A stretch of DNA of 64,000 nucleotides from Pirellulales bacterium (GCA_963733035.1 CAVTBU010000006.1:224001-288000); one strand, 5' to 3'. Positions 5,444 to 27,846 are shown, counted from the first letter of the stretch. Numbers and translations are program-made. The notes: a model not told the origin generated them from the letters alone.

Positions 5444-8400
5444 ATGATCGCACGGTACCGACCTGATGAATCCAACCAATCCAAACCGGGCGCCAACCAG
5501 CAGTCGGCTCAACTAGAACGCCTTTGCGCGGCGATCAGCAAGGCCGCCGAACTGTTGCCGACGTCCGGGCCGATCACGTCGTTCGCATTCTTAAACACCT
5601 TGCAGGCTCTCGAGAATTTGAGTTTTGAAGAGGGCATTGAGCGCGGAGCGACACTCTTTGGTTGCCAGCCGTGGCTGCCGGAAGAATCCTATCGGTTGTT
5701 CATGGCCAATCGTCGCATCGATGCCGAAGATCTGGCCACCGTGCTCTATGAAAGTCTTCGCGAAGAGGGAGCCGTGCCTGTGGGTGGGCTCTGTTCGCGA
5801 TATGATTTCCGCCTCGCGATGCTTAAGTATTCACTCCCCGCGGGTTCGCCGGAGGAACTGCGCTGGTACCTGGACGATAGCCAGGCACTCACCCGGTTCC
5901 GCCAGGATACTTCCGCAGAGACGAAGCGCCAGTTGCGTGACGAGACACGGCAGTGGTTGATGACCGAAGTGGCAACTGCAACGGAGAAAGTTGACCCGTC
6001 GGCCGACCCCTACGCGATGATGCTGGCCGATCTGGCACGCGAACTCAAGGCATCCGAGCTTGGCTATTGGACCAAGTCGGATGCCGAGTTGGACGCGATC
6101 TGCTTGCAGTCTTTGTGGCGCATCTGTACCGACCAAAGTGAACAGCTCGAACTTTCTCCAGTCCCCAAGCGGGCACCCCTCCGCGTGCGCGATCTGCTGT
6201 TCGACGCAACGGGCGAAGACAGCGATCTGTTGGTCCACGAGACGTTGATTCGTTTTTGTGCGGCGTTCACGGACCAGGGATTGGCCGATTGGCCCTTACC
6301 CGGCAAGGAGGAGGGCTTCTACCAGGCATTCTTGCAGCTCTATCGCGATCAGGCTGGATTACCCAACCATTGGATGCAAAGTCTCGCCGGCGAGATCGAC
6401 AGGTTAACGAGCTGTCAAATCGATCCCCTCGAATCGATACGCGAATCGTTGAGCATGTTGGGCTACTCCGAGGAGGAGTGGCCAGAAGTCATGCAAGCCA
6501 CGCTCTTGGCTTTGCCGGGTTGGGCCGGACTCATCCGGCACATGGAAGTGCGAGCGGACCGCTTTGCATTCCCCGCTCCGTCTGGCACGCTGTTGGGCTA
6601 CTTGGCCATTCGGCTGATTTTGGAGCGACAGGCACTCGCACACCTCAGCCGGAATACGCCGTTTGAAGTGTCGCAGTTAAACCAGCTGCGCGGCAAGCTG
6701 CTGCGGTCTCGGGTCAGCCCTGTGGATTCGCTCGGCTTCGGACGTGCGTTCGCAGTCTTTCAACTGGCGCAACTCTTGCGATGGTCGCCCCCCCGGCTGT
6801 CAAGATTGTCCGCCGATGATTGGAAATCGTTGGTCGAGGAGGTCGAGGCTTTTGGAAACGTCCAGCGCCGCCAACTCTTGCATCGGGCTTACGAACGACA
6901 TTTCGAATGCCAGGTGCTCGACGCGCTGTGGTCTTATGGTCAGCGTGCGACGACGCGATTGGCCGCGCCCGGTTTTCAGGCGGCGTTTTGTATCGACGCG
7001 CGCGAAGAATCGTTTCGGCGGCATATCGAGGAGGTAGGACAAAACGTCGAGACCTTTGGCGTGGCCGGCTTTTTTGGCGTGCCGATGTATTACCGGGGAG
7101 TGGCCGATGCCCATTTCGTGCCCCTGTGCCCCATCGTGATCAAGCCCGGCCATTGGGTTACAGAAGAAGTTGTTTACCCGCTGGGCGACGCGCATCGTCG
7201 TCGGAGTAACGTCCGGCGCCTGCTGGGAACCGCCGCCCACCGATTGCACATGAGTAGCCGCGGAGTTGCCCACGGCGCGGTGGTAACTGCCGGGCTGGGC
7301 GTGCTGGCGTCGGTCCCCTTGATTGCACGCGTGTTGTTTCCGCGAGCGACTGGCCGCGTTCGCAGCGTGGCCGGACGCATTGCACGGGCACCTTCGATGA
7401 CGCGATTGCGATTGCACCGTAGCGAAGCGGAGCCAGGACCCGAAAACGGTCACATCGGTTTTACGACCGACGAAATGGCGAATCTGGCCGAGCGCACTTT
7501 GCGCGAAATCGGTTTGACGTACGGCTTCGCGCGGTTGGTCGTGTTTTTTGGACACGGGTCCACATCGGTCAACAATCCGCACAAGTCGGTCTACGATTGC
7601 GGCGCTTGCACGGGAAATCCTGGCGGGCCGAACGCGCGCGCCTTGGCCGCCATGCTGAACGACGGCCACGTGCGAAACGTTTTGGCCCGACGAGGCGTGG
7701 AAATTCCTCGAGACACTTATTTCCTGGGTGGCATGCACAACACGAGTGACGACTCGGTGGCGTTCTTCGATCTGCAGGCCCTGCCTGCCTCTCACATTGG
7801 TGACTTTGAGGAATTGAAACATGTGCTCGCAGAAGCCTGCAACCGCAACGCGCACGAACGCTGCCGACGTTTCGACTCGGCTCCCTTGAGTCTGTCATTT
7901 TCGGCCGCGAAGCGACACGTTGAAGAGCGGTCGATGGATTTAGTGCAAGCCCGACCAGAATTTGGCAACGCATCCAACGCGATGTGCATCGTGGGCAGGC
8001 GACAACGCTCGCATGGACTTTTTCTCGACCGAAGGTCGTTCCTGATGTCTTATGACCCCGCCCAAGACGATGCCGAGTTCAATATACTAGAGAGAATTCT
8101 GAACGCCGTCGTACCAGTTTGCGAAGGCATCAACATGCAGTATTTTCTGTCCAGCATCGATTCGAGCGGCTGGGGATGCGGTTCAAAATTGCCGCACAAT
8201 ATCACCTCGCTATTGGGCATCATGGACGGGGCAGCCAGCGATTTGCGTTCCGGATTGCCGTGGCAGGGGGTTGAGATTCACGAACCCATGCGGCTGCTTT
8301 TCGTTGTCGAAACCACACCTGAGGCGATGCGTAAAATTATGCAGCGCAATCAGGCGATCGGGCGGATCCTGCGCAACGGATGGGCGCGGTTGGCGGTTCT

Positions 8401-8610
8401 TTCGCCCACGTCGAACAATATCGTTGTGTATACCGATGGAGAATTTCGGGCATACGAACCGTCGGCGGCGCAACTACGGAGGCCGAGTCGTCGACTGGCT
8501 GGTACCAGGGATGGCGTGACAACCTGGACATTGCCGTGATTGAGCGGCCCGCTGATCGGCAGGACGAGGCCAAGGCTTCGGAAGAATCGTCGGTGTCGAC
8601 GCAGTCCTGA
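5444..8610 (+). CDS. DUF2309 / DabA-like probable inorganic-carbon transporter subunit (C-terminal frameshift near 8480)
   Basis: FCIDAREESFRRH, GHGS, DCGAC, HEPMRL motifs. Confidence 0.88.
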
Positions 8611-12312: not shown

Positions 12313-12879
12313 ATGCGCGACCATGCCCAACAGGCCGTGACCGAGCTCTTGGTCTTGCGAGCGCAAGCGGGCCATGCCGACGCGCTATCGTTGCTGGTGC
12401 GCGACTGGCACGATCGGTTGGTCCGCCACGCACAGCGACTAACTGGCCACGAGGAGGCGGGTCGTGACGTGGTGCAAGAAGCCTGGATCGACGTGTCACG
12501 CGGTTTATGGGCTCTCGACGATCCCGCTCGCTTTGGCGCATGGGTGTTTCGGATTGTCACCAGGCGATCGGCGTTGTGGATTCGTCAGGAGCAGCGTCGT
12601 CGTCGACGCGAAAAGTCGACCCACGCCGCCAGTCCGACCGCATCGTCGCCGGGCGATCATCGCGAGGCCGGGCGGCGAGCCGAGGCAATCGACGATATGC
12701 ACCACGCCTTGAAAAGACTATCTACCGAAGACCAAGCTCTTCTTGAACTCCGCTATTTGCACGAATTCTCAATTGATGAAGTCGCAATCGCACTTGACAT
12801 TCCATCGGGCACGGCCAAGTCACGACTGTTTCATGCCCGGCAACGCTTAAAAGAGGAACTCCAGAGGGTACCCAAATGA
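12313..12879 (+). CDS. ECF RNA polymerase sigma factor
   Basis: DVVQEAW region 2; EVAIALDIPSGTAKSRLFHARQRL region 4. Confidence 0.93.
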   Translation: MRDHAQQAVTELLVLRAQAGHADALSLLVRDWHDRLVRHAQRLTGHEEAGRDVVQEAWIDVSRGLWALDDPARFGAWVFRIVTRRSALWIRQEQRRRRREKSTHAASPTASSPGDHREAGRRAEAIDDMHHALKRLSTEDQALLELRYLHEFSIDEVAIALDIPSGTAKSRLFHARQRLKEELQRVPK

Positions 12880-15478: not shown

Positions 15479-17070
15479 CTAATGACTTTCGTCCAGACTC
15501 AGCAAGACTCGCCCGATATGAGTCGCCAGCAACGAGTGGCCCGAACTTTCATCGCATGAGTGGCCTGCGGTATGCCAGCGGCTGCGTGGCCCGTCCACAA
15601 CGAGCCAACCCGGCTTGCCTAGGCGCAATGCGCGCGCCAGTGCAATCAATCGCTGAGGATATCCCAGCTCCTGAGAAAACTCAGCCACTAGCGTAATGGT
15701 CACCGAATCACAGTCCTGAAACGAAGATGGAGGCATCAAATGATCAAACTCATTGGAATGCTCAGCAATCGACACTTCCGAGATCATTCCAAGATTTCTC
15801 ATCTCCCAATAGCAGTGGACTGCATAGACATCGTCGGGAGGTCGATCACAGAGATCGTTTGAAAAGAGGCACAACGTTACACTCCCCACCATTCCGACTC
15901 CGACATCGTAGCCATGATAAGCTGTCGAGTCGTTCATACGGTACCTGATCAGCCACACCTCTTTCGGCTCGCGTGTGGGCGGCCAAGCCACTGTTCGGTG
16001 ATCGACAATTTTCAGTTCGTCGGGCGCACGGCCGAGCTCGTTCGGATGGGCGAGCCAATCGGCGAAGGCCGCCATGGCTTGGAAGTTCGGCAATTGGCAC
16101 TCGGAAGGAATGTAACCGCCCTGTTCGAGATCTCTGAGGCACTGTTGTGCTCGGGCAGAATACCTCGCATCACGACAACATCGCGTCAGCCACGCGAATC
16201 CAGCTTGGCGACCTAGTTTGGCCGCTGCATGCGCGCAGCCATTTGCACATCAAGGTCCACATGGTCTAAGGCTAAGGCCATAAGCGCATCTCGCCCGGAG
16301 GTACGAAGATACGGCAACGCCACGGCTGCACTTTGTGCATAGCTGACGTGCTCGCTGTCGGTCAACCACTTCTCAAGTTGTTCAATCCCTTTTGGTGTAT
16401 CAAATGGATGTGCACTGCAAACTCCGTCGCGACACGCGCTATTAGAACAATCGAGGAGGGCCACGGCGAGAAAGCCTGTCGGCCGTAAGTTGCTCAATTT
16501 AACGAGCAGGCGTTTGCGTTCCGGATGATCGTTTTCATACCGTGCGAGTATGACGCTCCATAGGCTTGAATCTGGCGCAAAAGCCTTTCGTGCCGCTCGT
16601 ATCACCGCATCGGTACCCTCGCGCGTACAATACATCGCCAACACGTCCAGGGCGAACAATACGTCGTCGGCCGGGTGGTGGGCCGGTGTACGCAAGCCTT
16701 CGTCGACCACTTTCAGTAGAAGGTCGCCCCCCTGCTTCGCAAGGATTGCGAAGGCGGGACACTCGGCGCTCTCAACCAAATCAAACAAGTGAATTAGTGA
16801 ACTCAGTGCAGACCGGTTCACATCCATTGGAGGCAGATCCAAAATCCACTCCAGGACATGGCAAATAGCTTCCGCGTCAATACGCGACTTGATAGGTTGC
16901 TCGCCCAGCTTCCACAGTTCGTCACTGACGCTTGCACCATGCTCCATTCCGCGTCTCAGTGCTAAAATCAGAGGCGTGTGTGTTGAGAAGTCGTCGAATC
17001 TCATCATCGGTCGGTCACCAAATCCAAATCTTCTGCCCAACTTAATGCTAGCCGAATATGTCGGGTCCAT
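15479..17070 (-). CDS. Hypothetical helical-repeat protein (two frames, probable frameshift near 16230)
   Basis: Consecutive same-strand ORFs 16213-17070 and 15479-16093. Confidence 0.5.
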
Positions 17071-17138
17071 CAGCAGTCAGAGAGCTCAACGCATATCTCG
17101 ACCTGGCTCGAACCGGCAAGATTTTCAGATTTCCCCAT

Positions 17139-17166
17139 GAACCCACGAAACCCTTCCGGCGTCTAA
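17139..17166 (+). promoter_or_regulatory. Candidate ECF-sigma promoter GAACC-N16-CGTCTAA
   Basis: Both boxes and the 16-nt spacing are conserved at 37845-37872 while the spacer diverges. Confidence 0.55.
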
Positions 17167-17238
17167 GGTGTCGACAGGGTCGAGGCCGTGTTGGCGTCCG
17201 ACTGCAGTTGTGACAAGCTTTTACGGGTTGTTCCTTCC

Positions 17239-17319
17239 ATGATGTTCTTACGGCCAAGACTGTTCCAAGAACACGTAGCCGGGAGTTATTGCGCAGCACA
17301 AACGATTGCTGCAAGGTAA
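17239..17319 (+). CDS. Candidate leader peptide MMFLRPRLFQEHVAGSYCAAQTIAAR
   Basis: First 11 codons identical in copy at 37946; overlaps attenuator segment; no clear SD. Confidence 0.45.
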   Translation: MMFLRPRLFQEHVAGSYCAAQTIAAR

Positions 17320-17375
17320 TTCCCCCGCGCTACCGCTACGCTTGTGACGCTTGGCCTTTAGGTCTGCTGGCTGCC

Positions 17376-17409
17376 AAAGCCCGATGTCACAAGGACATCG
17401 GGCTTTTTT
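17376..17409 (+). terminator. Intrinsic terminator ahead of tRNA array 1 (attenuator)
   Basis: AAAGCCCGATGTC-ACAAG-GACATCGGGCTTTTTT. Confidence 0.85.
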
Positions 17410-17455
17410 GTTAGCCTCATGTCGCGCGACAGCGGGAACCAAACAACAAACGAAT

Positions 17456-17527
17456 GGGTCGGTAGCTGAGACGGTTTAGCGGTGGCCTGAAAAGCCGCAG
17501 ACGAGGATTCGAGCGCCTCCCGACCCA
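17456..17527 (+). tRNA. tRNA-Phe(GAA)
   Basis: Cloverleaf; anticodon arm GTGGC-CTGAAAA-GCCGC. Confidence 0.8.
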
Positions 17528-17563
17528 CTGCGCTCTGCGTGCGCGCTGACGGAGAACACTCAC

Positions 17564-17636
17564 GGCTCGTTCGTCTATCGGTTCAGGATACTGCCCTTTC
17601 AAGGCGGAGAGGTGGGTTCGATTCCCACACGAGCTA
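17564..17636 (+). tRNA. tRNA-Glu(TTC)
   Basis: CTGCC-CTTTCAA-GGCGG. Confidence 0.9.
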
Positions 17637-17654
17637 CTGAAGCAACAAAATCAT

Positions 17655-17726
17655 CGGGCTGAAGAGGGACGGCGCCTCGCGTGCCTTGGGAGCACGAGAC
17701 AGTCGGTTCGACTCCGACCTGCCCGA
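17655..17726 (+). tRNA. tRNA-Pro(TGG)
   Basis: CGTGC-CTTGGGA-GCACG. Confidence 0.8.
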
Positions 17727-17736
17727 CTTGCGTGAC

Positions 17737-17808
17737 GGTAGTTGAGGGCTGGTTGCCCAAACCCGGCTGATAACCAGGTGGCGCTGAGTTCGATTCTCAG
17801 AACTACCA
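17737..17808 (+). tRNA. tRNA-Ile(GAT)
   Basis: CCCGG-CTGATAA-CCAGG. Confidence 0.8.
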
Positions 17809-17887
17809 CTGAACGAGAGATCACAAGAAGGAGAAACGACGTTGGCAACTCGCATGCGACTCAAACGCATACGCCCACTCCACATTC

Positions 17888-17959
17888 GGGGTCGTGGCGT
17901 AACGGCAGCGCTTCCGCCTTTTAAGCGGGAAGGTAAGGGTTCGACTCCCTTCGGCCCCA
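17888..17959 (+). tRNA. tRNA-Lys(TTT)
   Basis: TCCGC-CTTTTAA-GCGGG. Confidence 0.9.
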
Positions 17960-17987
17960 CTGCGTTGGCTTCGGCCAGCGATCGCGG

Positions 17988-18060
17988 CGGCGCGTAGCTC
18001 AGTGGTGAGAGCAGGTCTCTTATAAGGACCAGGTCGAGGGTTCGATTCCCTCCGCGCCCA
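17988..18060 (+). tRNA. tRNA-Ile(TAT)
   Basis: GGTCT-CTTATAA-GGACC; C1:C72 mismatch. Confidence 0.85.
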
Positions 18061-18092
18061 CTGTGCGCGCAGAAACGAGGAACAACACGAAC

Positions 18093-18165
18093 GGGATCAA
18101 GGTGCTAGCGGCAGCATGCCTGGCTCTTAACCAGGTCGGTGAGGGTTCAAGTCCCTCTGATCCCA
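18093..18165 (+). tRNA. tRNA-Lys(CTT)
   Basis: CCTGG-CTCTTAA-CCAGG. Confidence 0.88.
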
Positions 18166-18171
18166 CTGGAA

Positions 18172-18262
18172 ACAGGCGAGAGGCACGAGGCCACAGGCTA
18201 GAGGGCGACCTTGAACCTCTACTGCTGACCTCTGGTCTCTCGCCTCAGGCCTCTGGCCTGTT
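18172..18262. repeat. Inverted heptamer tandem repeat forming a long imperfect hairpin
   Basis: AGGC every 7 nt, followed by complementary CCT every 7 nt. Confidence 0.65.
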
Positions 18263-18294
18263 TCGATCTTTGACAATTCGACCAGCGATTCGAC

Positions 18295-18361
18295 GCGCCC
18301 ATGATGTAGCGGTAGCCTGCTGCCTTGCCATGGCGTGCGGGTTCAACTCCCGCTGGGCGCT
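18295..18361 (+). tRNA. tRNA-Gly(GCC), short deletion after anticodon stem
   Basis: CTGCC-TTGCCAT-GGC; only 67 nt. Confidence 0.7.
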
Positions 18362-18368
18362 TCAATTT

Positions 18369-18442
18369 CAGGGTGTGGGATAGCCTGGTAGTCCGCCTGC
18401 GTCGGGAGCAGGAGAGCGTCGGTTCAATTCCGACCACCCTGA
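18369..18442 (+). tRNA. tRNA-Pro(CGG)
   Basis: CCTGC-GTCGGGA-GCAGG. Confidence 0.9.
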
Positions 18443-18480
18443 CTTTTTGAGAACGCTCTGACCGGTACAATGAGCGAATC

Positions 18481-18798
18481 ATGAATTGGCTTACGCCGTG
18501 GACTCCGATTGTCGAAAGCGATCGCGCGGAAATGCTGACTACCGAACTTCGTCGCGAAGTTGGAGTCGGCCACGTGCTGTTCGGCATTCCGGTAAAACCA
18601 ATTGCAATTCGCCAAGATTGCGACGACGTGCTCTTCGAGCTTCTTGATGGCTCGGGCCGATTCGCCGTCACTCACTTGACGTACGCTCAGCATCCCGAGC
18701 CAGATTCGCAATGGCCTGCAACTCGTCTCTGTGACGATTTGACTCAATTCGAGCGGAGCATCATGCACGTCGATCATTCGACCGCGACCGGCTTATAG
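18481..18798 (+). CDS. Hypothetical protein between tRNA genes
   Basis: 105-aa ORF filling the inter-tRNA gap; DCDDVLF, HLTY motifs. Confidence 0.7.
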   Translation: MNWLTPWTPIVESDRAEMLTTELRREVGVGHVLFGIPVKPIAIRQDCDDVLFELLDGSGRFAVTHLTYAQHPEPDSQWPATRLCDDLTQFERSIMHVDHSTATGL

Positions 18799-18815
18799 CG
18801 ATCGACTCCAGCTCG

Positions 18816-18889
18816 GAGGGTGTAGCGAAGCCTGGCATCGCGCAAGCTCGGGGAGCTTGAGATCGCAGGTTCAAATCCTGCCACCCTGA
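18816..18889 (+). tRNA. tRNA-Pro(GGG), C33
   Basis: CAAGC-TCGGGGA-GCTTG. Confidence 0.82.
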
Positions 18890-18908
18890 CTCGAACGTCG
18901 TCGATTGT

Positions 18909-19457
18909 TCAGCGCTTCCAAATCGTTACGTCGCTGCTGATCGCGATCAATAGCGTTCGGCCAGTGTACGAAAAGCCAAACCCGCGAAGCTCACGCTCAA
19001 TGGCTAGTTTCCAGAATCGTGAGGCAGGTGGATAGATGCTCTCGTACTTGCCAAGAAGCAAAAGACTTGTGTCCGGCCAATCGATGGACAAGGCTTCGAC
19101 GCCCCATCCGTCATCGGTCTGAGTCGGGAGGCCACCACCGACAAGTCCACAGACGCGAATCTCCCTTCCATCAAGTGGACCAAATCCGATGGCAGTCATG
19201 GCGTCTTTGCCGAACCACGATTCTTGATCTGATTCGTCACGATCTCGAGCGACTTTTTCGCCGGTGCGGCAATCGATGATTCCACGCCCTTGAGACGACA
19301 GTACCAGTAGCAGTTCAGAGTCGTCCGCAAAACCAATCTCAGTAAGTCCGCCAATTGCGACGGACGCGACGAACGACCATGGCTCTGGCGGAGCGGTGAC
19401 CGCAGCACGGCGAATTTTGTCTCGCACAGGTTCGAGGTGGTCCATAAGGTTTGCCAT
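18909..19457 (-). CDS. Hypothetical protein between tRNA genes (antisense)
   Basis: 182-aa ORF filling the gap; beta-propeller-like strands. Confidence 0.7.
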   Translation of the reverse strand: MANLMDHLEPVRDKIRRAAVTAPPEPWSFVASVAIGGLTEIGFADDSELLLVLSSQGRGIIDCRTGEKVARDRDESDQESWFGKDAMTAIGFGPLDGREIRVCGLVGGGLPTQTDDGWGVEALSIDWPDTSLLLLGKYESIYPPASRFWKLAIERELRGFGFSYTGRTLLIAISSDVTIWKR

Positions 19458-19500
19458 GGGTTCATAGGATGGCTCGCCAGTATACCGGATTGATCAATAT

Positions 19501-19575
19501 TGCGGTGGGGCCTGTGTTGGTACAGGCAGGCGCCTGTTAAGCGCCCCTTCGCAGGTTCGATTCCTGCCGCCGCAG
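19501..19575 (+). tRNA. tRNA-Asn(GTT)
   Basis: GGCGC-CTGTTAA-GCGCC; G73. Confidence 0.85.
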
Positions 19576-19587
19576 CTTTCTAGGGAC

Positions 19588-19671
19588 GGAAGGGCAAGCC
19601 AATGGGCGATGGCAGCTGTTTCGAAAACAGTCGAGCGATGAGCCTTGAGGGTTCGACTCCCTCTCCTTCCG
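19588..19671 (+). tRNA. tRNA-Ser(CGA)
   Basis: GCTGT-TTCGAAA-ACAGT; long variable arm; G73. Confidence 0.88.
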
Positions 19672-19675
19672 CTTC

Positions 19676-19747
19676 GTGCTCTTGGCCGATCGGCAGAGGC
19701 GTCAGCCTTCCAAGCTGAACAGGCGGGTTCGATTCCCGCAGAGCACT
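19676..19747 (+). tRNA. tRNA-Gly(TCC)
   Basis: TCAGC-CTTCCAA-GCTGA; U73. Confidence 0.88.
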
Positions 19748-19760
19748 TTCGATCAATCAT

Positions 19761-19831
19761 TCGGGGATCGGCTAATGGTCGGCCGCCTGGCTTTGAACCA
19801 GGCTATGGTAGTTCGAATCTACCTCCCCGAG
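19761..19831 (+). tRNA. tRNA-Gln(TTG)
   Basis: CCTGG-CTTTGAA-CCAGG. Confidence 0.9.
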
Positions 19832-19840
19832 CTTGGAAGA

Positions 19841-19909
19841 CTACCGCCCTGCGCTCGATTGCCGCCCGGCAATCGTGCTCGGTTGCTGGTTTGATTCCTT
19901 CTCCCCGAA
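19841..19909 (+). pseudogene. tRNA 3' remnant whose 5' part is replaced by a hairpin micro-element
   Basis: CTACCGCCCTGCGCTCG-hairpin-CGTGCTCGGTTGCT joined to GGTTTGATTCCTTCTCCCCGAA. Confidence 0.6.
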
Positions 19910-19925
19910 CTCGGTGACAAAACAT

Positions 19926-20000
19926 TCCGGGGTAGCTGCTGCTGGTAGTGGCGCCTGGCTCTGAACCAGGAGGTCGTTGGTTCGATTCCAACTCCCGGAG
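19926..20000 (+). tRNA. tRNA-Gln(CTG)
   Basis: CCTGG-CTCTGAA-CCAGG. Confidence 0.88.
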
Positions 20001-20020
20001 CTGTTTCGAACGACACGATC

Positions 20021-20106
20021 GGAAGTCATCCGGCCGGATGAGGAGCCTGTCTTGAAAACAGGTGGCGGCCTCGCGCCGCTTGTGGGTTCGAGTCCCACGG
20101 CTTCCG
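20021..20106 (+). tRNA. tRNA-Ser(TGA)
   Basis: CCTGT-CTTGAAA-ACAGG; long variable arm. Confidence 0.88.
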
Positions 20107-20134
20107 CTCAACAGGTCGATTCGTTCAGCAACAC

Positions 20135-20205
20135 AGTCCCGTGGTCCAACGGCAAGACTCCTGCGTCACATCCAGGAAACGATGGTTCAACTCCATCCGG
20201 GACTA
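20135..20205 (+). tRNA. tRNA-Val(CAC)
   Basis: CCTGC-GTCACAT-CCAGG (one mismatch). Confidence 0.8.
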
Positions 20206-20211
20206 CTCGAT

Positions 20212-20285
20212 GTCCAGGTACGCCAATTGGCAGAGCGGCACGGCTTAAACCCGCGCGGATGCCGGTTCGACTCCGGCCTTGGGCA
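20212..20285 (+). tRNA. tRNA-Leu(TAA), short variable loop
   Basis: CACGG-CTTAAAC-CCGCG. Confidence 0.8.
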
Positions 20286-20295
20286 CTGTCAACGC

Positions 20296-20368
20296 GGCTC
20301 GGTCGGCAACGGCAGACCACCTTGGCTTAGAACCAAGGATGCTGTGGGTTCGAATCCCACCTGAGCTA
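20296..20368 (+). tRNA. tRNA-Leu(TAG), short variable loop
   Basis: CTTGG-CTTAGAA-CCAAG. Confidence 0.85.
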
Positions 20369-20382
20369 TTTAGTAGAGACTC

Positions 20383-20457
20383 GTCCTCGTGGAGTAGTCT
20401 GGAGTGCTCGCCTGCCTGTCACGCAGGAGATCACGGGTTCAAATCCCGTCGGGGACG
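20383..20457 (+). tRNA. tRNA-Asp(GTC)
   Basis: CCTGC-CTGTCAC-GCAGG; G73. Confidence 0.92.
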
Positions 20458-20539
20458 CCTTTTGATTGTTGTACGCGAAATCGTCTGTGGCGCGGAGTGT
20501 TCCGCAACGCCTCGACGAACTGCAACGCAACGTAAATCT

Positions 20540-20613
20540 GGCACGGTACGCCAATCGGCTGAGCGGCGAAGCTCAAACCTTCGTGTCTGCGGGTTCGACT
20601 CCCGCCTGTGCCA
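20540..20613 (+). tRNA. tRNA-Leu(CAA), short variable loop
   Basis: CGAAG-CTCAAAC-CTTCG. Confidence 0.85.
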
Positions 20614-20619
20614 CTGTTC

Positions 20620-20706
20620 GGGTTGTGCTCCTCGTGGCGGCCTGTAAAGCCGTTGTCACAAAAGAAGCGAGGTGGGCGACGAATGGTTCGATTCCTTCAC
20701 AACCCA
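20620..20706 (+). tRNA. Atypical tRNA-Tyr(GTA) lacking a D hairpin
   Basis: Acceptor GGGTTGT/ACAACCC; GCGGC-CTGTAAA-GCCGT; T loop TTCGATT; only ~10 nt in D region. Confidence 0.7.
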
Positions 20707-20711
20707 ATTGA

Positions 20712-20784
20712 GGCCCGCTCGTCTATCGGTTGAGGACGCCAGCCTCTCAAGCTGGAAGGACGGGTTCGATTCCCGTGCGGGTCA
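20712..20784 (+). tRNA. tRNA-Glu(CTC)
   Basis: CCAGC-CTCTCAA-GCTGG. Confidence 0.9.
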
Positions 20785-20790
20785 CTGTAT

Positions 20791-20873
20791 GGCCAAGTGG
20801 TGTAACTGGTAAACACGCGACGCTCAGAACGTCGTGCCCTTGCGGCGTGGGAGTTCGAGTCTCCCCTTGGTCA
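20791..20873 (+). tRNA. tRNA-Leu(CAG)
   Basis: CGACG-CTCAGAA-CGTCG; long variable arm. Confidence 0.9.
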
Positions 20874-20890
20874 CTGAAATATTGAATTGA

Positions 20891-20959
20891 CGCAGGTGAG
20901 CCAGTGCTCAGCCGAGTTTCATAAGCTCAGCCCGTCGGGTGCGACACCCGAACCTGCAA
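20891..20959 (+). tRNA. Atypical initiator-like tRNA-Met(CAT)
   Basis: C1:A72 mismatch; loop TTCATAA; T loop TGCGACA. Confidence 0.7.
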
Positions 20960-20964
20960 CTTAC

Positions 20965-21040
20965 GGCCGGGTACGCAAACTGGCAAAGCGACGAGGTCGA
21001 GAGCCTCGTGATTTTGTGAGTTCGACTCTCACTCCGGTCA
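20965..21040 (+). tRNA. tRNA-Leu(GAG), C33, short variable loop
   Basis: CGAGG-TCGAGAG-CCTCG. Confidence 0.82.
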
Positions 21041-21069
21041 CTTGAATGAGATTGCGGCCAAAACTGATC

Positions 21070-21507
21070 CTACAGTGCGAGCACGCGGCACACCTCTCGA
21101 ATCCAGATCTCACCGATCCATTCCAGGTCGGCATACGGAGAGATGCGTGAAGCGGTCCAGCCGCTTTCGTCGAGTACTCGCATCATGCCGGGTGCCGCCA
21201 AGGCGTTCGTTGTGTGGATGATCACTGGGCATGTCGGCGGTTTCGTCGCGAGAAAGTCGGCCACATCGCGTCCGGTGCCGGGGTCACGCATGACACCGCC
21301 GATCAATCGGTTGGGTCCGAGATCGTGATCGAGGCAGATGAGAATCGGTTCGCCGCAGTGAACCTTCAGCCAGACGATCATATCTGGTGCATTGTCGAAC
21401 ACAATTGATTCATGGCCTGGGCAGCGACTTGCGAGGCACGGCAACATTGCGGCGATCCGTTCCGGCTCGTCGTCAAGAATTGCGACTACTTTTGATTCGC
21501 TTGCCAT
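21070..21507 (-). CDS. Cyclic-phosphate-processing receiver-like domain protein
   Basis: ILDD, LDHDLG, GTGRDV, IHTTN motifs. Confidence 0.7.
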   Translation of the reverse strand: MASESKVVAILDDEPERIAAMLPCLASRCPGHESIVFDNAPDMIVWLKVHCGEPILICLDHDLGPNRLIGGVMRDPGTGRDVADFLATKPPTCPVIIHTTNALAAPGMMRVLDESGWTASRISPYADLEWIGEIWIREVCRVLAL

Positions 21508-21533
21508 GTCAACAAGTCTAACAAATCACATTC

Positions 21534-21606
21534 GATCCCGTGGTCCAACGGCTACGACGCCTGGATGACACCCAGGAGGCAGATGGTTCAACTCCATCCG
21601 GGATCA
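21534..21606 (+). tRNA. tRNA-Val(GAC)
   Basis: CCTGG-ATGACAC-CCAGG. Confidence 0.88.
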
Positions 21607-21616
21607 TTTGCGAATC

Positions 21617-21688
21617 GGTCTGTAGGTGTGTTCGGCGGCACACCTCCTCGGTAAGGAGGAAGGCCGGGTTCGACTCCCGGACGGACCT
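21617..21688 (+). tRNA. tRNA-Thr(GGT), C33
   Basis: CCTCC-TCGGTAA-GGAGG. Confidence 0.82.
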
Positions 21689-21757
21689 TCAACCGAGCAC
21701 GCGACATAGGCGTGCCGCGAGCGCAGGGCGAAAGGAATCGAGATGGATAGAAGTGAG

Positions 21758-21790
21758 GGGCTGCTGGTCCAACGGCAAGACGCTTGGATT
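21758..21790 (+). pseudogene. 5' half of a tRNA-Ala-like gene; 3' half replaced by a hairpin
   Basis: GGGCTGCTGGTCCAACGGCAAGACGC nearly identical to 5' end of tRNA-Ala at 21838. Confidence 0.6.
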
Positions 21791-21837
21791 GAAGTCAGCG
21801 TCGATGGCAACGGCGGATCGACGCTCGTCAAATACAT

Positions 21838-21908
21838 GGGCTGCTCGTCCAACGGGAAGACGCCTGGCTTGCAACCAGGAAATCGGGGTTCGACTCCCCG
21901 GCGGTCCA
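21838..21908 (+). tRNA. tRNA-Ala(TGC)
   Basis: CCTGG-CTTGCAA-CCAGG; G3:U70. Confidence 0.9.
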
Positions 21909-21919
21909 CTGAATAAAAC

Positions 21920-21990
21920 GGGCTCATGGTCCAAAGGGAAGACATCAGGCTGGCAGTCTGAAGATCCGGGTTCAATTCCCGGTGAGTCCA
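21920..21990 (+). tRNA. tRNA-Ala(GGC)
   Basis: TCAGG-CTGGCAG-TCTGA; G3:U70. Confidence 0.88.
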
Positions 21991-22008
21991 CTGATACGGG
22001 AAACCTTT

Positions 22009-22311
22009 TTACATCGGAATACCGGCATCAATCGCAGCTTGTCGATTGTGGCCGGGTTCGAGAAGTGTCGTTCCTTGATAGACCTCGACGTTCGCGTCCA
22101 TGAGATCAGAAAGAGGCAGCTCAACATAGACCTGGGTATTACGGTCGGTCTCGACAACGTTGAACCACGGTTGTGCAACGAAACTGCGCACCTGGATTTC
22201 CAGTGACTCGCCGGGCAACAGCGTGAAGTCGTGAGGCCACGGCTCGACCCAAATGACGCGCAATTGCGCTTCGTCGTTGGTCACGCCGATCTTTGCGAAG
22301 AACTCACTCAT
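22009..22311 (-). CDS. Hypothetical protein between tRNA genes
   Basis: 100-aa ORF; WVEPW motif. Confidence 0.65.
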   Translation of the reverse strand: MSEFFAKIGVTNDEAQLRVIWVEPWPHDFTLLPGESLEIQVRSFVAQPWFNVVETDRNTQVYVELPLSDLMDANVEVYQGTTLLEPGHNRQAAIDAGIPM

Positions 22312-22443
22312 TACCCTAGCGTATTGCGGAAGCGTACGACAAACAAGTGATTCGGAAGGTAGATGCTATGGCAGCGGCGAGGGACTGCGTTAGGCTCCGA
22401 GTCACGAGGGATTGTTTTATCCGTTGTTTTGAGGAGCTCAATC

Positions 22444-23622
22444 ATGGCCACTCGACCGCAAGACTGCAGCACAACGAAGCCAGTACTGTTCCTGGGTCTC
22501 GAATTAGGGCAGCGAACCTGGAAGTTGGGGTTCACCGTGGGTTTGGGTCAGAAGCCGCGGCGACGTGAGATCGCTGCCGGTTGCATTCAGGCACTGAAAC
22601 GAGAGATCAATGAGAGTAAGCAACGTTTTGGTCTGCCTGCGGATGTGGAGGTGATTAGCTGTTACGAGGCAGGCCGTGATGGGTTTTGGCTGCATCGTTG
22701 GCTGGTGTCTGAGAACGTCACAAACTTGGTGGTTGACTCGTCTAGCATTCAAGTGCCGCGGCGGCAGCGACGGGCCAAGACCGATCGTCTGGATTTGGAA
22801 CAATTGTTGACCATGTTGGTGCGCTGGCATCAGGGCGAGTCGAAAGTCTGGAGCGTGGTGACGGTGCCGAGTGAAGCGGAAGAGGACGTTCGGCATTTGC
22901 ATCGCGAGTTGGAAACGCTGCGGGCGGAACAGACCAGCCACATCAATCGAATCAAGGGGCTGTTGATCGGTTGCGGCGTGGTGATTGATGTGAACCGCTG
23001 GCTACCGAAACGGCTCAAAGCAATACGGCTTTGGAATGGCTCGCCGTTGACCAGCGATTTGCGGCAACGGGTATTGCGGGAGTTCGAGCGGATGCAGGTG
23101 GTCAATCGACAGGTTCGCGAGCTGGAAAAGGAGCGTGCCGCCCGGATTCGCAGCAACGAAACTGACAAGAGCGTCGCCCAGGTGCGGACGTTGTTGGGCG
23201 TGAAGGGCATCGGCGTCAACAGCGCGTGGATGTACGTGCAGGAGGTGTTTGGCTGGCGAAAGATCAAGAATCGTCGTCAATTGGGTGCGCTCGTGGGGCT
23301 GACCGGCAGTCCGTATAGCAGCGGCAACTTGGAGCGCGATCAGGGAATTACAAAGGCTGGAAACCGCCGGATGCGAACAATGGCTGTCGAAATCGCCTGG
23401 GGATGGTTGGCATTCCAACCCGGCAGCGATCTGAGCCGTTGGTATCACGATCGATTCGCGGCCGGAAACAAGCGTCTTCGTCGCATTGGAATTGTGGCGC
23501 TGGCAAGAAAGCTGTTGGTGGAGTTGTGGAAATACCTGGAGACCGGCGTGCCGCCTTGCAACGCGGAGCTGACCGAGTGGGAGGACAAGATTCACTACAC
23601 CCCTTCCCTTACGCCGGCGTAG
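22444..23622 (+). CDS. IS110-family transposase/recombinase
   Basis: LGLELG, CYEAG, KTDRLD (DEDD fold); GVKGIG, PYSSG, ITKAGN; GAGGAG before ATG 22444. Confidence 0.95.
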   Translation: MATRPQDCSTTKPVLFLGLELGQRTWKLGFTVGLGQKPRRREIAAGCIQALKREINESKQRFGLPADVEVISCYEAGRDGFWLHRWLVSENVTNLVVDSSSIQVPRRQRRAKTDRLDLEQLLTMLVRWHQGESKVWSVVTVPSEAEEDVRHLHRELETLRAEQTSHINRIKGLLIGCGVVIDVNRWLPKRLKAIRLWNGSPLTSDLRQRVLREFERMQVVNRQVRELEKERAARIRSNETDKSVAQVRTLLGVKGIGVNSAWMYVQEVFGWRKIKNRRQLGALVGLTGSPYSSGNLERDQGITKAGNRRMRTMAVEIAWGWLAFQPGSDLSRWYHDRFAAGNKRLRRIGIVALARKLLVELWKYLETGVPPCNAELTEWEDKIHYTPSLTPA

Positions 23623-23669
23623 CGATTGGATCGGTGCGAGTATGGAGCGTCTGAACGACTGACGTCGAG

Positions 23670-23855
23670 ACTGGAAAGCGACCGAGTATCCGGCGGGTAC
23701 GAGTTAGGCTCACCGAAAGGTAGATGGGATCGCTTTCATTATGGCTTCCCGAGAGCGTCCAGGACGCATAGGGCATAGGGTGATCGGCGATGATGCCGGC
23801 ACGGATAGAAGCTAGTCGTTGGCCTCGGCCACAACGATCAGCGGAAGCCGCCAGT
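23670..23855 (+). ncRNA. Predicted bridge/seek RNA of the IS (also at about 40932-41117)
   Basis: Two stem-closed internal loops with segments matching target and donor junctions. Confidence 0.72.
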
Positions 23856-24218
23856 CATGACGTTGAACCGACAGAAGAAGTGTTTTGAGGAATGGCAGGA
23901 CAAATGAATGTGCATCCCAGCACGGCTCCAGCCGCGGCGTGCGGCCAGAGCCGTCACGGAATCATTCACCCGCCCTGACCTGGCTATCCCTTGTTGGGTT
24001 GCTCTTCAGCAGAGCTCAACTCCGTTTCACCAGGCAGGCGAAAGTATATCACGACTCAACGTTGGATGAGGAGCTTGACAGGTGCGCATCCATAGAAGCC
24101 GGATACGGTTGGCCGGGCCGCTCTGCTAAGGCGGTTCCCGCTCGTCGGGATGAGGGTTCGAATCGGGCACCGCGGCAAAGCCGTGGTCTACCTTCCGCTG
24201 GTGAAAAGGCTCCTCCAA

Positions 24219-24581
24219 TCACTTCGCCTGTTCCACGTCGATCGCGGCCCGCAGCTCCTCAACATTCGCGAATTGTTGAAGTGGAAGATCGAACGAGTAG
24301 TCGAGATCAATGATTCGAAGGGGGATGCCGAGATGCCTTTGAACGATCAGCGCGGCACTTAGGGCGGCGTCTGTCATCCCCGATATCGAGATCGCGTCGC
24401 GTTTCCGGCTGAGGTCGACCATCGTGAAGTCGTCGCCCTCAGAATAGTCCGCTTCAATTGGGATTCCGATGGACGTATTATATCGAATCTCACCGAATCC
24501 CCTGACCGACTTGAAAATGTCTTGCAACGCCTCGACGGTAAATAGCCGTTTGTCGTCGCTGAACAGCAGAAGACTTTGCAT
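24219..24581 (-). CDS. Hypothetical protein, candidate immunity protein
   Basis: Directly downstream of nuclease-toxin ORF; GGAG RBS. Confidence 0.6.
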   Translation of the reverse strand: MQSLLLFSDDKRLFTVEALQDIFKSVRGFGEIRYNTSIGIPIEADYSEGDDFTMVDLSRKRDAISISGMTDAALSAALIVQRHLGIPLRIIDLDYSFDLPLQQFANVEELRAAIDVEQAK

Positions 24582-24596
24582 AGCAATTACGTACTC

Positions 24597-25867
24597 CTAG
24601 GGCTCGAGTCGCACCTTGCCGGGCACGGATAGTTCCTTGAGCAGGGCTTCAAAAGCTGACTTCGCCTCGGGCGAGTTGGTGATGATTTCGATTGATTTAA
24701 AAGGCGTTTCGCCACTCTTGATAATTGTGCGAACTCTCGTCAAATCGTCACGCACTTTGTCCAGAATCACGGCCCGGATGTCCTCTCGGATAGATGAGCC
24801 GGGCACATAAGGACTCTTGCCGGCCTTCGCTACGTGCTTCGCTTCAAGAATTATCGTATCCCGGTATCCATCGATTGCAAAAGACTGGCCGCCGCCTGAT
24901 ATCGTGTAGTTGTAGGGGCCGGTCTGCTTGATTTCATATTGACTCGCTGCCGATTTCGTGGGTGTAGGCTTGCGAGGAAGCTTCGCGACGAAGTCATCAA
25001 GAGTGCCTCCCACTTTTCCAGGAACTTTGCGAAGCGCCCTGCCGAGCACAGCCTTCCCGAGTCGCAGGATTGCCGGTGCGGCCACGACGGCGGATGCAAT
25101 TTCAAACTCAATGCCGGTTGACTGCAAACCACTCGGTGTGCCGCCCCTGGCTACGGCATGCCCGACTTCCTCGATACCCTTGCCACCGACGATCGTCTCT
25201 GCCGGGGTGAACGCCGAATGCTGTTTCGCTGGGCGTGATAGCTCTTAATGCGTTTCGGCAATTCCTTGATTTGGCGACGGGTGTGATCCAATGCATTCTT
25301 TGTCTGCCACCAAGCGTGTGCCAGGTCCAGCATGTGTGAGTCGGAACCGTCGGACTCGTCGCTTCCGCCGCTACCGGGCCCCTTGCTGCGGGGTGAGCGA
25401 CTCTTGCCGGTGTTGATTCCGCCCCCACCGCCCCCCTTATTGATCCACTGCCCGCCGATCGGCGTTCCCTTGGGCGCCCGGGGATGATCGGCCTCGTTCC
25501 ATTCGACAACAAGTGAGTCTGATTCAGTGAATCGCTCGATCGCATGCCACGTCCTGCTGTCCCGTGCCTCGATCTGTTGAATCGCACGCAGTTTGTCTTC
25601 CGCCTCGGCCGAGATCTGAGCTGCCCATTCCAGAAGCTCACGATCGCGACGAGCGTTGGCTTCGGCGGATTGCAGCTCGCGCAGCTCCTTTGCCTGTCGA
25701 TACGAGAATCGTGCTAGCCGCCCCAACTCCTCGCGTTGAGCTTTCGCCTGTGCCTCGGGAGGCATCATTCGTGGAATCGGCCTACCGAGAATCGCTTGTG
25801 CAAATAGCCAACCTTCGCTGGGCTGCGAAACTCCGGCGACATCCCGTGTCTTTTTGTAACGGTCCAT
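24597..25867 (-). CDS. Polymorphic-toxin-like protein with C-terminal restriction-endonuclease-fold domain (frameshifted near 25130-25230)
   Basis: LFAQAILG, RDRELLEW shared with 14049; HPRAPKG..GGQW; IDGY...LEAK PD-(D/E)XK motif. Confidence 0.6.
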
Positions 25868-25891
25868 GACGCTCCTCTTCATGGGTGCGAG

Positions 25892-26034
25892 AAAAAGAGC
25901 CCGCACCCGGTGCGCGCTTCGCAAGCGCGCACCGATTACGGGCTCTTTGGATACTCGTTGTCAGGGGCCTACTGGCACGAGGACGTGCAGTCGAGCTCTT
26001 CGGATACCCCGGTCACTCATGGTGACCTTGCCCA
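25892..26034 (-). promoter_or_regulatory. Structured leader/terminator, second copy
   Basis: Homologous to 13876-14017 with covarying stems. Confidence 0.65.
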
Positions 26035-26179
26035 GCGATCAGCTCGCCGATTGATTCGGAACCTAGCACAAAGGGCGGCCTAGTTTCTAGTCGAAGATTT
26101 AATGGAGTGATTGGTCTGAGCAAATACGTCGCGCGAACCGTGCGGCGTGGATCTGTTTCCTTTTCTAATGTCTCAGCTC

Positions 26180-26269
26180 GCCTCGATGGTGAAACGGACG
26201 ATCACTCCTTGCTTCTAACAAGGCCCGGTATTTCTGGGAGACGCGGGGGTTCGAATCCTGGTCGGGGCA
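26180..26269 (+). pseudogene. tRNA-Arg(TCT) with hairpin insertion at variable loop/T stem
   Basis: CCTTG-CTTCTAA-CAAGG; 17 nt longer than intact copy at 41457. Confidence 0.75.
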
Positions 26270-26368
26270 TTTTGAAGAAGAGTGGTTGGTGGTCAGTGGC
26301 TAGTGGTCAGTGAAGCAAGGGGCGGCGAACACAAAGCGTGCTCGTCTGTCCTACCTGTGGCCTGTGGT

Positions 26369-26436
26369 CTACCGCCCTGCGCTCGGCAGATGCCCATCTG
26401 CCGTGCTCGGTTGCTGGTTCAATTCCTCGGCGAGGC
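26369..26436 (+). pseudogene. 3' remnant of tRNA-Arg(TCG) fused to hairpin micro-element
   Basis: GGTTCAATTCCTCGGCGAGGCA matches 3' end of tRNA at 42884-42956. Confidence 0.7.
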
Positions 26437-26616
26437 ACTGAGAAGGCGGCGAGTTGAATGATCATGTTGCGAGCGATCCTAACAGCGTTGAGACGATTCC
26501 TGTTTGGCCAGCCTGTGGCCAGCAGGGTGACCGCGAAGAAACCGTCGGCAGAAGCCGTCGCGTGTGCGGTCGTTCATTCGACGACGTCGGCGGATCGCAA
26601 CGAAGGGAGGCCTACC

Positions 26617-27108
26617 ATGAACGCAGCCTATGACAAACTATGCGAACACCTGACCAACCAGAACGTCGGCTTTTGGTCGCGCAGCGAGGACTTGTCGATC
26701 TGCACCGACTTTCGGGGCGAGGTCGGTACGTACCGGATCTTCGCTCGGATTGATGCTGATGACAGCTTGTTCCAGGTCTTCGGTCATTCGCCGGTTCGCG
26801 TTCCGCCAGGCTCGCGGCCGGCGATCGCCGAGGCCGTGGCGCGGATCAACTGCGGTCTGAAGGTCGGCAAGTTCGAGATGGATTGTGACGAGGGCGAGCT
26901 GCGGTTCCAGGCGGCCCAGATCCTGCCCGACGACGATCTCGACGAGCAGACGATTCGGCGACTGATTGGTACGACCATGTCGATGTTGAACATTTACCTT
27001 CCGGCCATCTTGTCGGTCATCTACGGCAACGAACTGCCGAAGGATGCCGTCAGACACGCAGAGCCCGGGCGGTATGTGTCCGACGAAAACGAGCGCGGTG
27101 AGGCCTGA
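26617..27108 (+). CDS. YbjN-domain protein, copy 1
   Basis: AEAVARINCGLKVGKFEMD..GELRF; GGAGG RBS. Confidence 0.8.
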   Translation: MNAAYDKLCEHLTNQNVGFWSRSEDLSICTDFRGEVGTYRIFARIDADDSLFQVFGHSPVRVPPGSRPAIAEAVARINCGLKVGKFEMDCDEGELRFQAAQILPDDDLDEQTIRRLIGTTMSMLNIYLPAILSVIYGNELPKDAVRHAEPGRYVSDENERGEA

Positions 27109-27121
27109 TCACCGCGCATTT

Positions 27122-27194
27122 GTCCTCGGAGTGTGCCGGATTCGCACGCGACCCTGCGAAGGTCGAGGACCAGGTTCAACTCCTGGCGAGGACA
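27122..27194 (+). tRNA. tRNA-Arg(GCG)
   Basis: CGACC-CTGCGAA-GGTCG. Confidence 0.85.
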
Positions 27195-27241
27195 TTTTGG
27201 AATGTCGCGGGATTGTGTACCGTAGTAGCGGGAGACACTCA

Positions 27242-27822: not shown

Positions 27823-27846
27823 TTCAACGAAGTCAGAAAGGAGATT

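Follow-up and report, generated by a model that had tools for sequence, protein, structure and literature searches.

Two arrays of transfer RNA (tRNA) genes lie on the same strand of a 64,000-nucleotide (nt) stretch of DNA from a Pirellulales bacterium (GCA_963733035.1, CAVTBU010000006.1:224001-288000; the whole stretch that was analyzed, hereafter the window), with a homologous leader (~290 nt) 5' of each. We consider it probable that a ribosome-mediated (leader-peptide) transcription attenuator that senses slow translation gates each of these arrays. The array would then be the body of an operon and a leader of ~240 nt its transcription attenuator. Four parts that define an attenuator are found in the leader: an open reading frame (ORF), an intrinsic terminator before the genes, an antiterminator that is mutually exclusive with it, and a further helix, 1:2, whose 5' strand lies within the ORF. 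The two leader copies are 80 to 81% identical, and their alignment begins at about 17127 and about 37833, just 5' of a conserved GAACC block, and extends through the first tRNA. Their elements are the following, in window coordinates.

17120-17415, + strand: leader copy 1.
17239-17319, + strand: leader ORF of copy 1, a frameshifted form of the family ORF with 26 codons and a TAA stop (17317-17319), reading MMFLRPRLFQE...
17252-17258, + strand: segment 1 of copy 1 (GGCCAAG), codons 5 to 7 of the leader ORF, which pairs with segment 2.
17341-17356, + strand: segment 2 of copy 1 (CTTGTGACGCTTGGCC), an invariant block of the family with the consensus TGA at 17345-17347.
17378-17393, + strand: segment 3 of copy 1, the terminator 5' arm and loop, partner of segment 2.
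17376-17409, + strand: intrinsic terminator of copy 1, with a 13-bp stem (17376-17406), a 5-nt loop and a T6 tract.
37827-38143, + strand: leader copy 2.
37946-38020, + strand: leader ORF of copy 2, frameshifted, with 24 codons and a TGA stop (38018-38020).
37959-37965, + strand: segment 1 of copy 2.
38073-38088, + strand: segment 2 of copy 2, with the consensus TGA at 38077-38079.
38109-38143, + strand: terminator and T-tract of copy 2, with a 13-bp hairpin (38109-38139) and the segment 3 partner at 38111-38126.

To place these two copies in a family, 60 leader copies from genomes were collected and aligned, and the counts given below rest on 56, 57, 59 or 60 of them. Homologues occur in 28 of 61 relatives (BLAST with the leader as query) and in 56 of 401 sampled genomes of the order (a single DNA query), so the leader features are far beyond chance. 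A DNA pattern that spans segment 2 and the terminator arm added at least 120 loci from metagenome contigs, and 94 nonredundant metagenome loci with at least 140 nt of upstream sequence, chosen solely by this segment 2-terminator pattern, formed an independent test set. Beyond the order, the full module was found in 1 of 400 other genomes of the phylum (G755); the other matches outside the order in these 400 genomes were weak and lay within long ORFs. A 17-base degenerate pattern run on genome contigs gave mostly chance matches, with 6 true leaders among the 119 loci listed, and true leader matches carry the labels Pirellulales, Planctomycetaceae or Thermoguttaceae. A viral origin of the leader was considered and rejected, as viral contigs held no exact match to the segment 2-terminator pattern.

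The ATG at 17239 is conserved, and similarity among distant homologues begins there. In 52 of the 60 genome copies, this ATG opens a frame that runs without interruption to an invariant TGA lying within segment 2, across nine length classes (93, 96, 99, 102, 108, 117, 120, 126 and 132 nt, or 31 to 44 codons); of these 52 leaders, 48 and 32 have stops in the other two frames. The independent metagenome loci repeat this arrangement: 91 of the 94 carry an ATG-headed open frame of 29 to 46 codons that ends at the TGA and encodes the same peptide family. An earlier interpretation of this DNA, made from its sequence alone (the sequence-only reading), had named conservation in homologous leaders as a check on its uORF (an upstream ORF at the same ATG), and on that check the ORF has been kept open in both sets. 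The encoded peptide has the consensus M-x-F-L-R-P-S-x-x-x-E-R ... A ... P-A-x-P-L-R-L, and its stop codon is invariably TGA with C as the next base, within the invariant block GCGCTTGTGAC. Entropy is highest at the third codon position, both in the N-terminal part of the ORF (1.25, versus 1.04 and 0.94 at the other two positions) and in the C-terminal part (1.10 versus 0.90 and 0.82). The C terminus, ..P-L-R-L-TGA-C, is conserved at the amino acid level with synonymous turnover: among the 52 ORFs, Pro(-4) is encoded by CCG in 23, CCT in 11, CCC in 7 and CCA in 5; Leu(-3), present in 48, by TTG in 20, CTG in 19, CTA in 6 and CTC in 3; and Arg(-2), present in all 52, by CGC in 47, CGA in 3 and CGT in 2. 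By these coding signatures the leader ORF is a real, conserved ORF, and it is longer than the 24 to 26 codons first proposed for it, since the family form runs on to the TGA in segment 2.

At its 5' end, the ORF overlaps segment 1 of a switch made of three mutually exclusive helices, 1:2, 2:3 and 3:4, an overlap that the sequence-only reading had recognized. Helix 1:2 joins segment 1 with the 3' half of segment 2. Across 57 genome leaders, 86.5% of cells are paired in this helix, with 19 double changes versus 7.4 in shuffled alignments, a number that none of 500 shuffles reached; registers slid along the alignment are paired in 4.5 to 59%. The independent metagenome leaders had been selected without regard to segment 1; in 92 of them, the fraction of paired cells is 94.7%, and pair 24:150 of the helix is AT in 37 and GC in 36, with 15 mismatches. 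The terminator helix, 3:4, is paired in 98.2% of cells in the 57 genome leaders and shows 21 double changes, again reached by none of 500 shuffles; the T-tract behind the hairpin has six or seven T in the window copies. The antiterminator, 2:3, pairs the whole of segment 2 with the entire terminator 5' arm and loop in 16 continuous, conserved pairs, and in the 57 leaders it is paired in 85.3% of cells in register versus 25 to 48% when slid. A covarying hairpin lies inside the ORF, and a structured domain of ~70 to 100 nt separates segments 1 and 2. RNAalifold, applied to the diverse alignment, recovered the terminator alone, and the other helices were tested as named structures.

Much of this anatomy had been predicted correctly. 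The features named by the sequence-only reading, GGCCAAG at 17252-17258, CTTGTGACGCTTGGC at 17341-17355, GCCAA at 17373-17377 and GTCACAAG at 17386-17393, are where it placed them; an intrinsic terminator does lie between the promoter-like motif and the first tRNA in both copies (13-bp stems at 17376-17406 and 38109-38139); and the changes in copy 2 (GTCGCAAG and CCCGGTGTC) preserve pairing through G:U pairs. Its antiterminator was half right. The outer helix, TTGTGAC:GTCACAA, is conserved, but in the inner helix, TTGGC:GCCAA, three of the five pairs are standard in only 21 to 36 of the 57 sequences, and its place is taken by the longer continuous helix of segment 2 with the whole terminator 5' arm.

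The specific version of the switch given in the same reading, a macrolide-type +x+ stall at L-R-P-R in a uORF of 24 to 26 codons that frees an antiterminator made of CTTGTGAC:GTCACAAG plus TTGGC:GCCAA, now seems very improbable. Both window copies and close relatives do carry R-P-R, and the outer helix of that antiterminator is the conserved one. Across the family, however, the R/K-x-R/K motif has not been kept: at codon 7, 38 of the 52 ORFs have Ser, 7 have Arg and 1 has Lys, giving a consensus of R-P-S, and R-L-S and W-S-S variants are common. The inner helix pairs too seldom at the three positions just described, and the short ORFs are frameshifted derivatives of the family form. Codons 5 to 7 read R-P-S, R-L-S, R-S-S or W-S-S according to lineage, and the residues change together with segment 2, which argues that these codons are shaped mainly by RNA pairing. 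One subfamily of the peptide (metagenome leaders L196, L199, L217, L224 and others) has L-W-S-S at codons 4 to 7, ends in R-H-W-R-L or R-H-L-R-L, and often carries extra in-frame ATGs upstream.

The combination of a coding signature with exclusive helices bears on two further explanations. In the first, the leader is an RNA-only switch (a riboswitch, a T-box-like tRNA sensor or the target of an RNA-binding antiterminator protein) to which the ORF is incidental, and the terminated leader might itself act as a small RNA (sRNA). Such a switch would account for the conserved, structured helices, including the covarying hairpin inside the ORF, and it would fit the lack of a Shine-Dalgarno motif in most leaders. 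Nevertheless, a frame kept across nine length classes, variability concentrated in third positions and synonymous turnover are unexpected of a noncoding RNA. Rfam at the gathering score matched tRNAs only in the window and no leader family, and at E values up to 10 it gave weak terminator-like matches only, the best being a 28.7-bit sRNA model over the terminator; the T-box riboswitch was matched at neither setting. We regard this explanation as having a slim chance of being correct. In the second, the first gene of the operon encodes a working microprotein, and the hairpin does not switch but terminates leakily or constitutively, or else serves in processing or stability. The peptide is conserved; gene callers have predicted the leader ORF in 70 clusters at 50% identity within a library of 1.84 billion proteins, mostly anchored at the same C terminus; and there are orphan leaders with no tRNAs directly downstream. 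Against this stand the conservation of three exclusive helices with the stop codon embedded in the pivotal segment, the exchange of amino acids at codons 5 to 7 along with compensating changes in segment 2, and the absence of any family match for the peptide in Pfam and NCBIfam. A microprotein is therefore improbable in our view, if slightly less so than an RNA-only switch.

Attenuation by a translating ribosome accommodates both the peptide and the helices. In the mechanism that we propose, transcription would start at a promoter of the extracytoplasmic function (ECF) sigma type, as judged from its motif, and the short ORF would begin ~60 to 90 nt downstream, with codons 5 to 7 forming segment 1 and the stop lying inside segment 2. 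Segment 2 could pair either with segment 1 or with segment 3, that is, with the whole terminator 5' arm and loop. With no ribosome on the leader, helix 1:2 and the terminator would form and the array would be off. The size of the ribosome footprint is established, and a ribosome that kept pace with RNA polymerase and stood on the TGA would, at that size, cover segment 2, so that the terminator would form and the array would again be off. A ribosome that lagged or stalled in the ORF would instead hold segment 1 or the body of the ORF and leave segment 2 free. Free segment 2 could then capture segment 3 as it emerged, no terminator would form, and the polymerase would read into the tRNAs. That stalling frees the antiterminator and turns on spare tRNAs was already the core of the sequence-only reading, and this logic fits all of the comparative data. 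The sensor is probably one of general decoding slowness and not of a single amino acid, because each peptide contains about 16 different amino acids with no run of any codon; in particular, no run of codons for a regulating amino acid was found in the leader ORFs. Slow decoding could be caused by tRNA damage or depletion or by elongation inhibitors. Codon 4 is TTA in 28 of the 52 ORFs.

Thermodynamic folding of the 57 leaders is consistent with the proposed sequence of events. In minimum free energy (MFE) structures of the full leader, the terminator is present in 54 and helix 1:2 in 39, and when the nascent RNA extends to segment 2, helix 1:2 forms in 45. With segment 1 masked and the terminator 3' arm not yet made, the antiterminator is in the MFE structure of 53. 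The antiterminator region has a median energy of -24.1 kcal/mol, versus -21.4 kcal/mol for the terminator.

The conserved ..P-L-R-L-TGA-C end of the peptide may serve to hold the terminating ribosome on segment 2. An alternative hypothesis is that the C terminus (..N-x-L-P-x-H-P-L-R-L) together with TGA-C arrests the terminating ribosome in response to a particular signal, such as release factor 2 activity, a small molecule or an antibiotic, and that this programmed arrest sets the switch in place of general slowness, in the manner of TnaC or SpeFL. The last four residues are conserved as amino acids while their codons turn over synonymously, the stop is invariably TGA then C in an invariant block, and this C terminus is kept in 91 of the 94 independent copies, all of which a peptide-specific arrest would explain. 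However, a ribosome on the TGA covers segment 2 and favors termination, so such a stall alone would repress the array and not induce it. The same bases are also under the RNA constraint of the antiterminator, which explains part of their conservation without the peptide, and no result points to a ligand or factor. Arrest of this kind is thus an unlikely explanation, although the most credible of the alternatives to an attenuator that senses decoding speed.

Both window copies depart from the family form of the ORF. In copy 1, two bases are missing in a GC run, so that the distance from the ATG to the consensus TGA, 106 nt, is not divisible by 3, and the second half of the family peptide is readable in another frame at 17288-17344. 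In copy 2, one base is missing and the same distance is 131 nt; this 1-nt deletion is common to a leader from another genome (L007). These frameshifts explain why the C termini of the two uORFs differ, a caveat attached to the sequence-only reading. From 17239 the copy 1 ORF does read MMFLRPRLFQE as had been stated, and its TTA and AGA codons are indeed rare: among 10 window genes, TTA accounts for 0.02 and AGA for 0.03 of their codon families, and GTA (0.07), AGT (0.09) and CCA (0.11), also used in the ORF, are infrequent as well. The GC content at third codon positions is 0.44 in the window ORF copy versus 0.71 in window genes. A ribosome terminating in either of these copies would leave segment 2 uncovered. 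The off state could still come about through helix 1:2, and stalling at segment 1 could still switch the array on.

Several observations weigh against control of the arrays by attenuation. Frameshifted ORFs occur in 7 of 59 leaders, with both window copies among them, and the window copies may be decaying or working differently. Translation of the leader ORF is something that we infer from its coding signature rather than observe, and a Shine-Dalgarno-like motif, whose absence the sequence-only reading had rightly given as a caveat, is present in 14 of 56 leaders and lacking in the other 42, including both window copies. The antiterminator strands are near-invariant and show little covariation, so that their support comes from conservation and register, and one conserved mismatch, 150:193, lies within the helix; near-invariance is what is expected of strands that each serve two partners. 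With segment 1 masked, the terminator still wins at equilibrium in 47 of 57 leaders, and read-through must therefore be kinetic, as in classical attenuators. No tRNA lies within 400 nt of 11 of 59 leaders; four of these 11 are followed by a YbjN-family gene, one is followed by an ISL3 transposase and one is at a contig end. Finally, a search of raw reads for this organism returned no sequencing run with half of the searched words.

In the remaining 48 of the 59 leaders, a same-strand tRNA follows within 400 nt, and in 38 it is tRNA-Phe(GAA). In 16 leaders no more than 24 nt separate the T-tract from the tRNA, and in 4 the distance is 1 to 3 nt, which leaves no room for a second promoter. The order Phe-Glu-Pro-Ile-Lys of the tRNAs behind the leader is likewise found in relatives. 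Contigs from two RNA libraries of relatives, in which DNA carry-over may be present, span the terminator into tRNA-Phe and give a weak hint of read-through in those relatives.

The 5' end of the conserved unit is marked by G(T/C)GAACC, a spacer of fixed length and variable sequence, and CGGCGTCTAA, often with an A/T-rich stretch before it. In the window the motif is found at two places.

17139-17166, + strand: ECF-sigma-type promoter-like motif of copy 1, with GAAC at 17139-17142, a 17-nt spacer and CGTCTAA at 17160-17166.
37845-37872, + strand: promoter-like motif of copy 2, with GAAC at 37845-37848, a 17-nt spacer and CGTCTAA at 37866-37872.

The pattern GAAC-N16/17-CGTC is present in 50 of 56 leaders (N17 in 36, N16 in 14), 67 to 98 nt 5' of the ATG, and agrees with what we take to be the general ECF sigma pattern, a -35 element with AAC and a -10 element with CGT, 16 to 17 nt apart. 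The motif thus probably acts as an ECF-sigma-type promoter, with a start site shortly downstream and a sigma factor of the ECF group as its presumed partner. A strict form of the pattern occurs in the genome only at both leaders and at one probable chance site, and a wider regulon was rejected on this count. Two other promoters were considered and set aside. A generic scan for sigma-70-like promoters gave no site inside either leader, its sole match being upstream at 16817-16845. A TTGACA-N19-TNCAAT promoter, visible in close relatives, is missing from distant homologues; its -10 element overlaps the conserved ATG, and no stretch is more conserved than its spacer. In the 1.5 kb upstream of 14 leaders, no gene is common to the loci; the conserved unit therefore starts at the leader, and a regulator encoded in cis was likewise rejected. 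The ECF sigma factor gene at 12313-12879 was dismissed as a linked regulator, being near neither copy 2 nor the arrays of other genomes. This gene and that for a DabA inorganic-carbon transporter subunit (5444-8539) lie 5' of array 1.

The two arrays that follow the leaders are of unequal size.

17456-27822, + strand: tRNA array 1, with 30 tRNA genes, the first being tRNA-Phe(GAA) at 17456-17528.
38190-44483, + strand: tRNA array 2, with 14 tRNA genes, the first being a Phe-type gene with a 19-nt insertion.

A tRNA array unit is defined, in the statement of it given in PMC4758250, as at least 20 tRNA genes at a density of at least 2 per kb. Array 1, with 30 tRNAs in 10.4 kb, falls within this definition, and array 2, with 14 in 6.3 kb, is under the gene-number threshold. 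By ARAGORN, the 6.6-Mb genome holds 96 tRNA genes, 44 in the two arrays and 52 elsewhere. The 52 nonarray genes form a complete set, Ile(UAU) and Leu(UAA) included, and because of this the array tRNAs are spares; in the whole genome, Arg(GCG) tRNA is confined to the arrays. A match between the codons of the leader and the tRNAs of the array was looked for and discarded: the arrays duplicate the complete housekeeping set, the leader is a generalist, and the two show no specific correspondence.

The first tRNA of array 2 (38190-38281) carries its 19-nt insertion in the D region and is called by ARAGORN as a tRNA-Cys of odd length. Similar insertions are found at the same place in first tRNAs behind the leaders of other genomes (L007, L173, L159 and L152); such an insertion may be an intervening sequence, or a disruption that recurs. 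The two leader-array-tail units, 17120-28660 and 37827-45330, are direct repeats with 83 to 100% identity in blocks, and the kdpD/kdpB/kdpA genes (30420-37512, - strand) lie between them, so that the kdp operon is flanked by arrays. Both arrays contain an IS110-family transposase ORF of 419 amino acids (22363-23622 and 39625-40884), with 100% identity reported over 300 nt. Just beyond the array ends, in the repeated tail, truncated tRNA-like matches (Rfam tRNA model positions 4 to 67) at 27971-28036 and 44633-44698 may be integration-site remnants. Protein genes within or at the end of the arrays are located at 21070-21507 (- strand), 26458-27108, 41648-42244, 42977-43621, 43748-44407 and 45061-46221. 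The array-embedded proteins comprise a cyclic-phosphate-processing receiver domain (cREC_REC), two YbjN-family proteins, an HNH endonuclease, HEPN/AbiV and SPFH. In four relatives a YbjN-family gene stands directly behind the leader, and genes of this kind are also inside both window arrays.

A more ambitious interpretation, which we offer tentatively and think somewhat more likely to be wrong than right, is that the leader is a translation-speed meter in a horizontally moving back-up kit. We speculate that the ECF-type stress promoter and the pan-codon ORF together could form an AND gate, in which P-L-R-L-TGA-C would park the ribosome and the complete spare set would be transcribed only when ribosomes trail the polymerase, for example during tRNA cleavage by anticodon nucleases or toxins. 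The kit would travel with the YbjN, cyclic-phosphate-processing receiver domain, HNH and HEPN/AbiV genes.

If the arrays are controlled by attenuation as proposed, there would be a direct physical link in planctomycetes between the speed of the ribosome and the supply of spare tRNA. Textbook attenuation would be extended from amino acid operons to tRNA genes, and the leader would represent a compact natural sensor of general decoding stress. It would also help to show under which conditions the arrays come into use, such as exposure to tRNA-cleaving toxins or attack by phages. The leader family, found in 56 of the 401 genomes sampled from the order and at no fewer than 120 metagenome loci, is large enough for clean mutational tests.

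Among the closest known systems are the attenuators of amino acid operons (the trpL, hisL, pheL, thrL, leuL and ilv leaders), in which a leader ORF, exclusive pairings and a terminator are combined and the position of the ribosome decides the fold. The planctomycete leader shares with these the leader ORF, the exclusive pairings 1:2, 2:3 and 3:4 and the intrinsic terminator before the genes. It differs in that it would gate tRNA genes and not biosynthetic enzymes, in its long ORF (31 to 44 codons) without a regulatory codon run, in the stop codon inside segment 2, in the structured domain of ~70 to 100 nt between segments 1 and 2, and in its conserved C terminus. In the erm leaders and the tylosin-induced yxjB leader, stalling in a leader ORF reportedly remodels the RNA and turns genes on under translation inhibition. 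The proposed stall in the planctomycete ORF would likewise remodel downstream RNA, but the output would be tRNAs, and the +x+ motif is not conserved and no drug-arrest motif is present. TnaC and SpeFL arrest the ribosome at the stop codon and, depending on a ligand, control Rho-dependent termination or translation of the next gene. Conserved C-terminal residues directly before the stop codon are common to them and the planctomycete peptide, whereas the planctomycete leader has an intrinsic terminator, and a ribosome on its stop would favor termination. T-box leaders precede aminoacyl-tRNA synthetase and amino acid genes, not tRNA genes. Like them, the planctomycete leader is linked to tRNA and offers a choice between terminator and antiterminator, but it has a coding signature and no T-box match in Rfam.

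Long tRNA arrays occur widely and are mobile, and for the most part they lack an explanation. A full-text literature search, which did not cover supplements, returned no description of leader-peptide or terminator control of tRNA arrays. Planctomycete tRNA clusters were already known from published surveys (PMC4807772, PMC4758250, PMC8421152), and Planctomycetes are named among the phyla with L-arrays (PMC8421152). The only studied example is the trn L-array of Anabaena sp. PCC 7120, whose supernumerary tRNAs are described as horizontally spread and silent until translation is impaired (PMC8421152). The passages of that paper on control assign it to promoter repeats and describe no leader ORF or terminator, in contrast to the planctomycete arrangement of an ECF-like motif followed by a putative attenuator. 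Both are long arrays of supernumerary tRNA genes, and the induction of the Anabaena array by translational stress agrees in outcome with the attenuation model suggested here for the planctomycete arrays.

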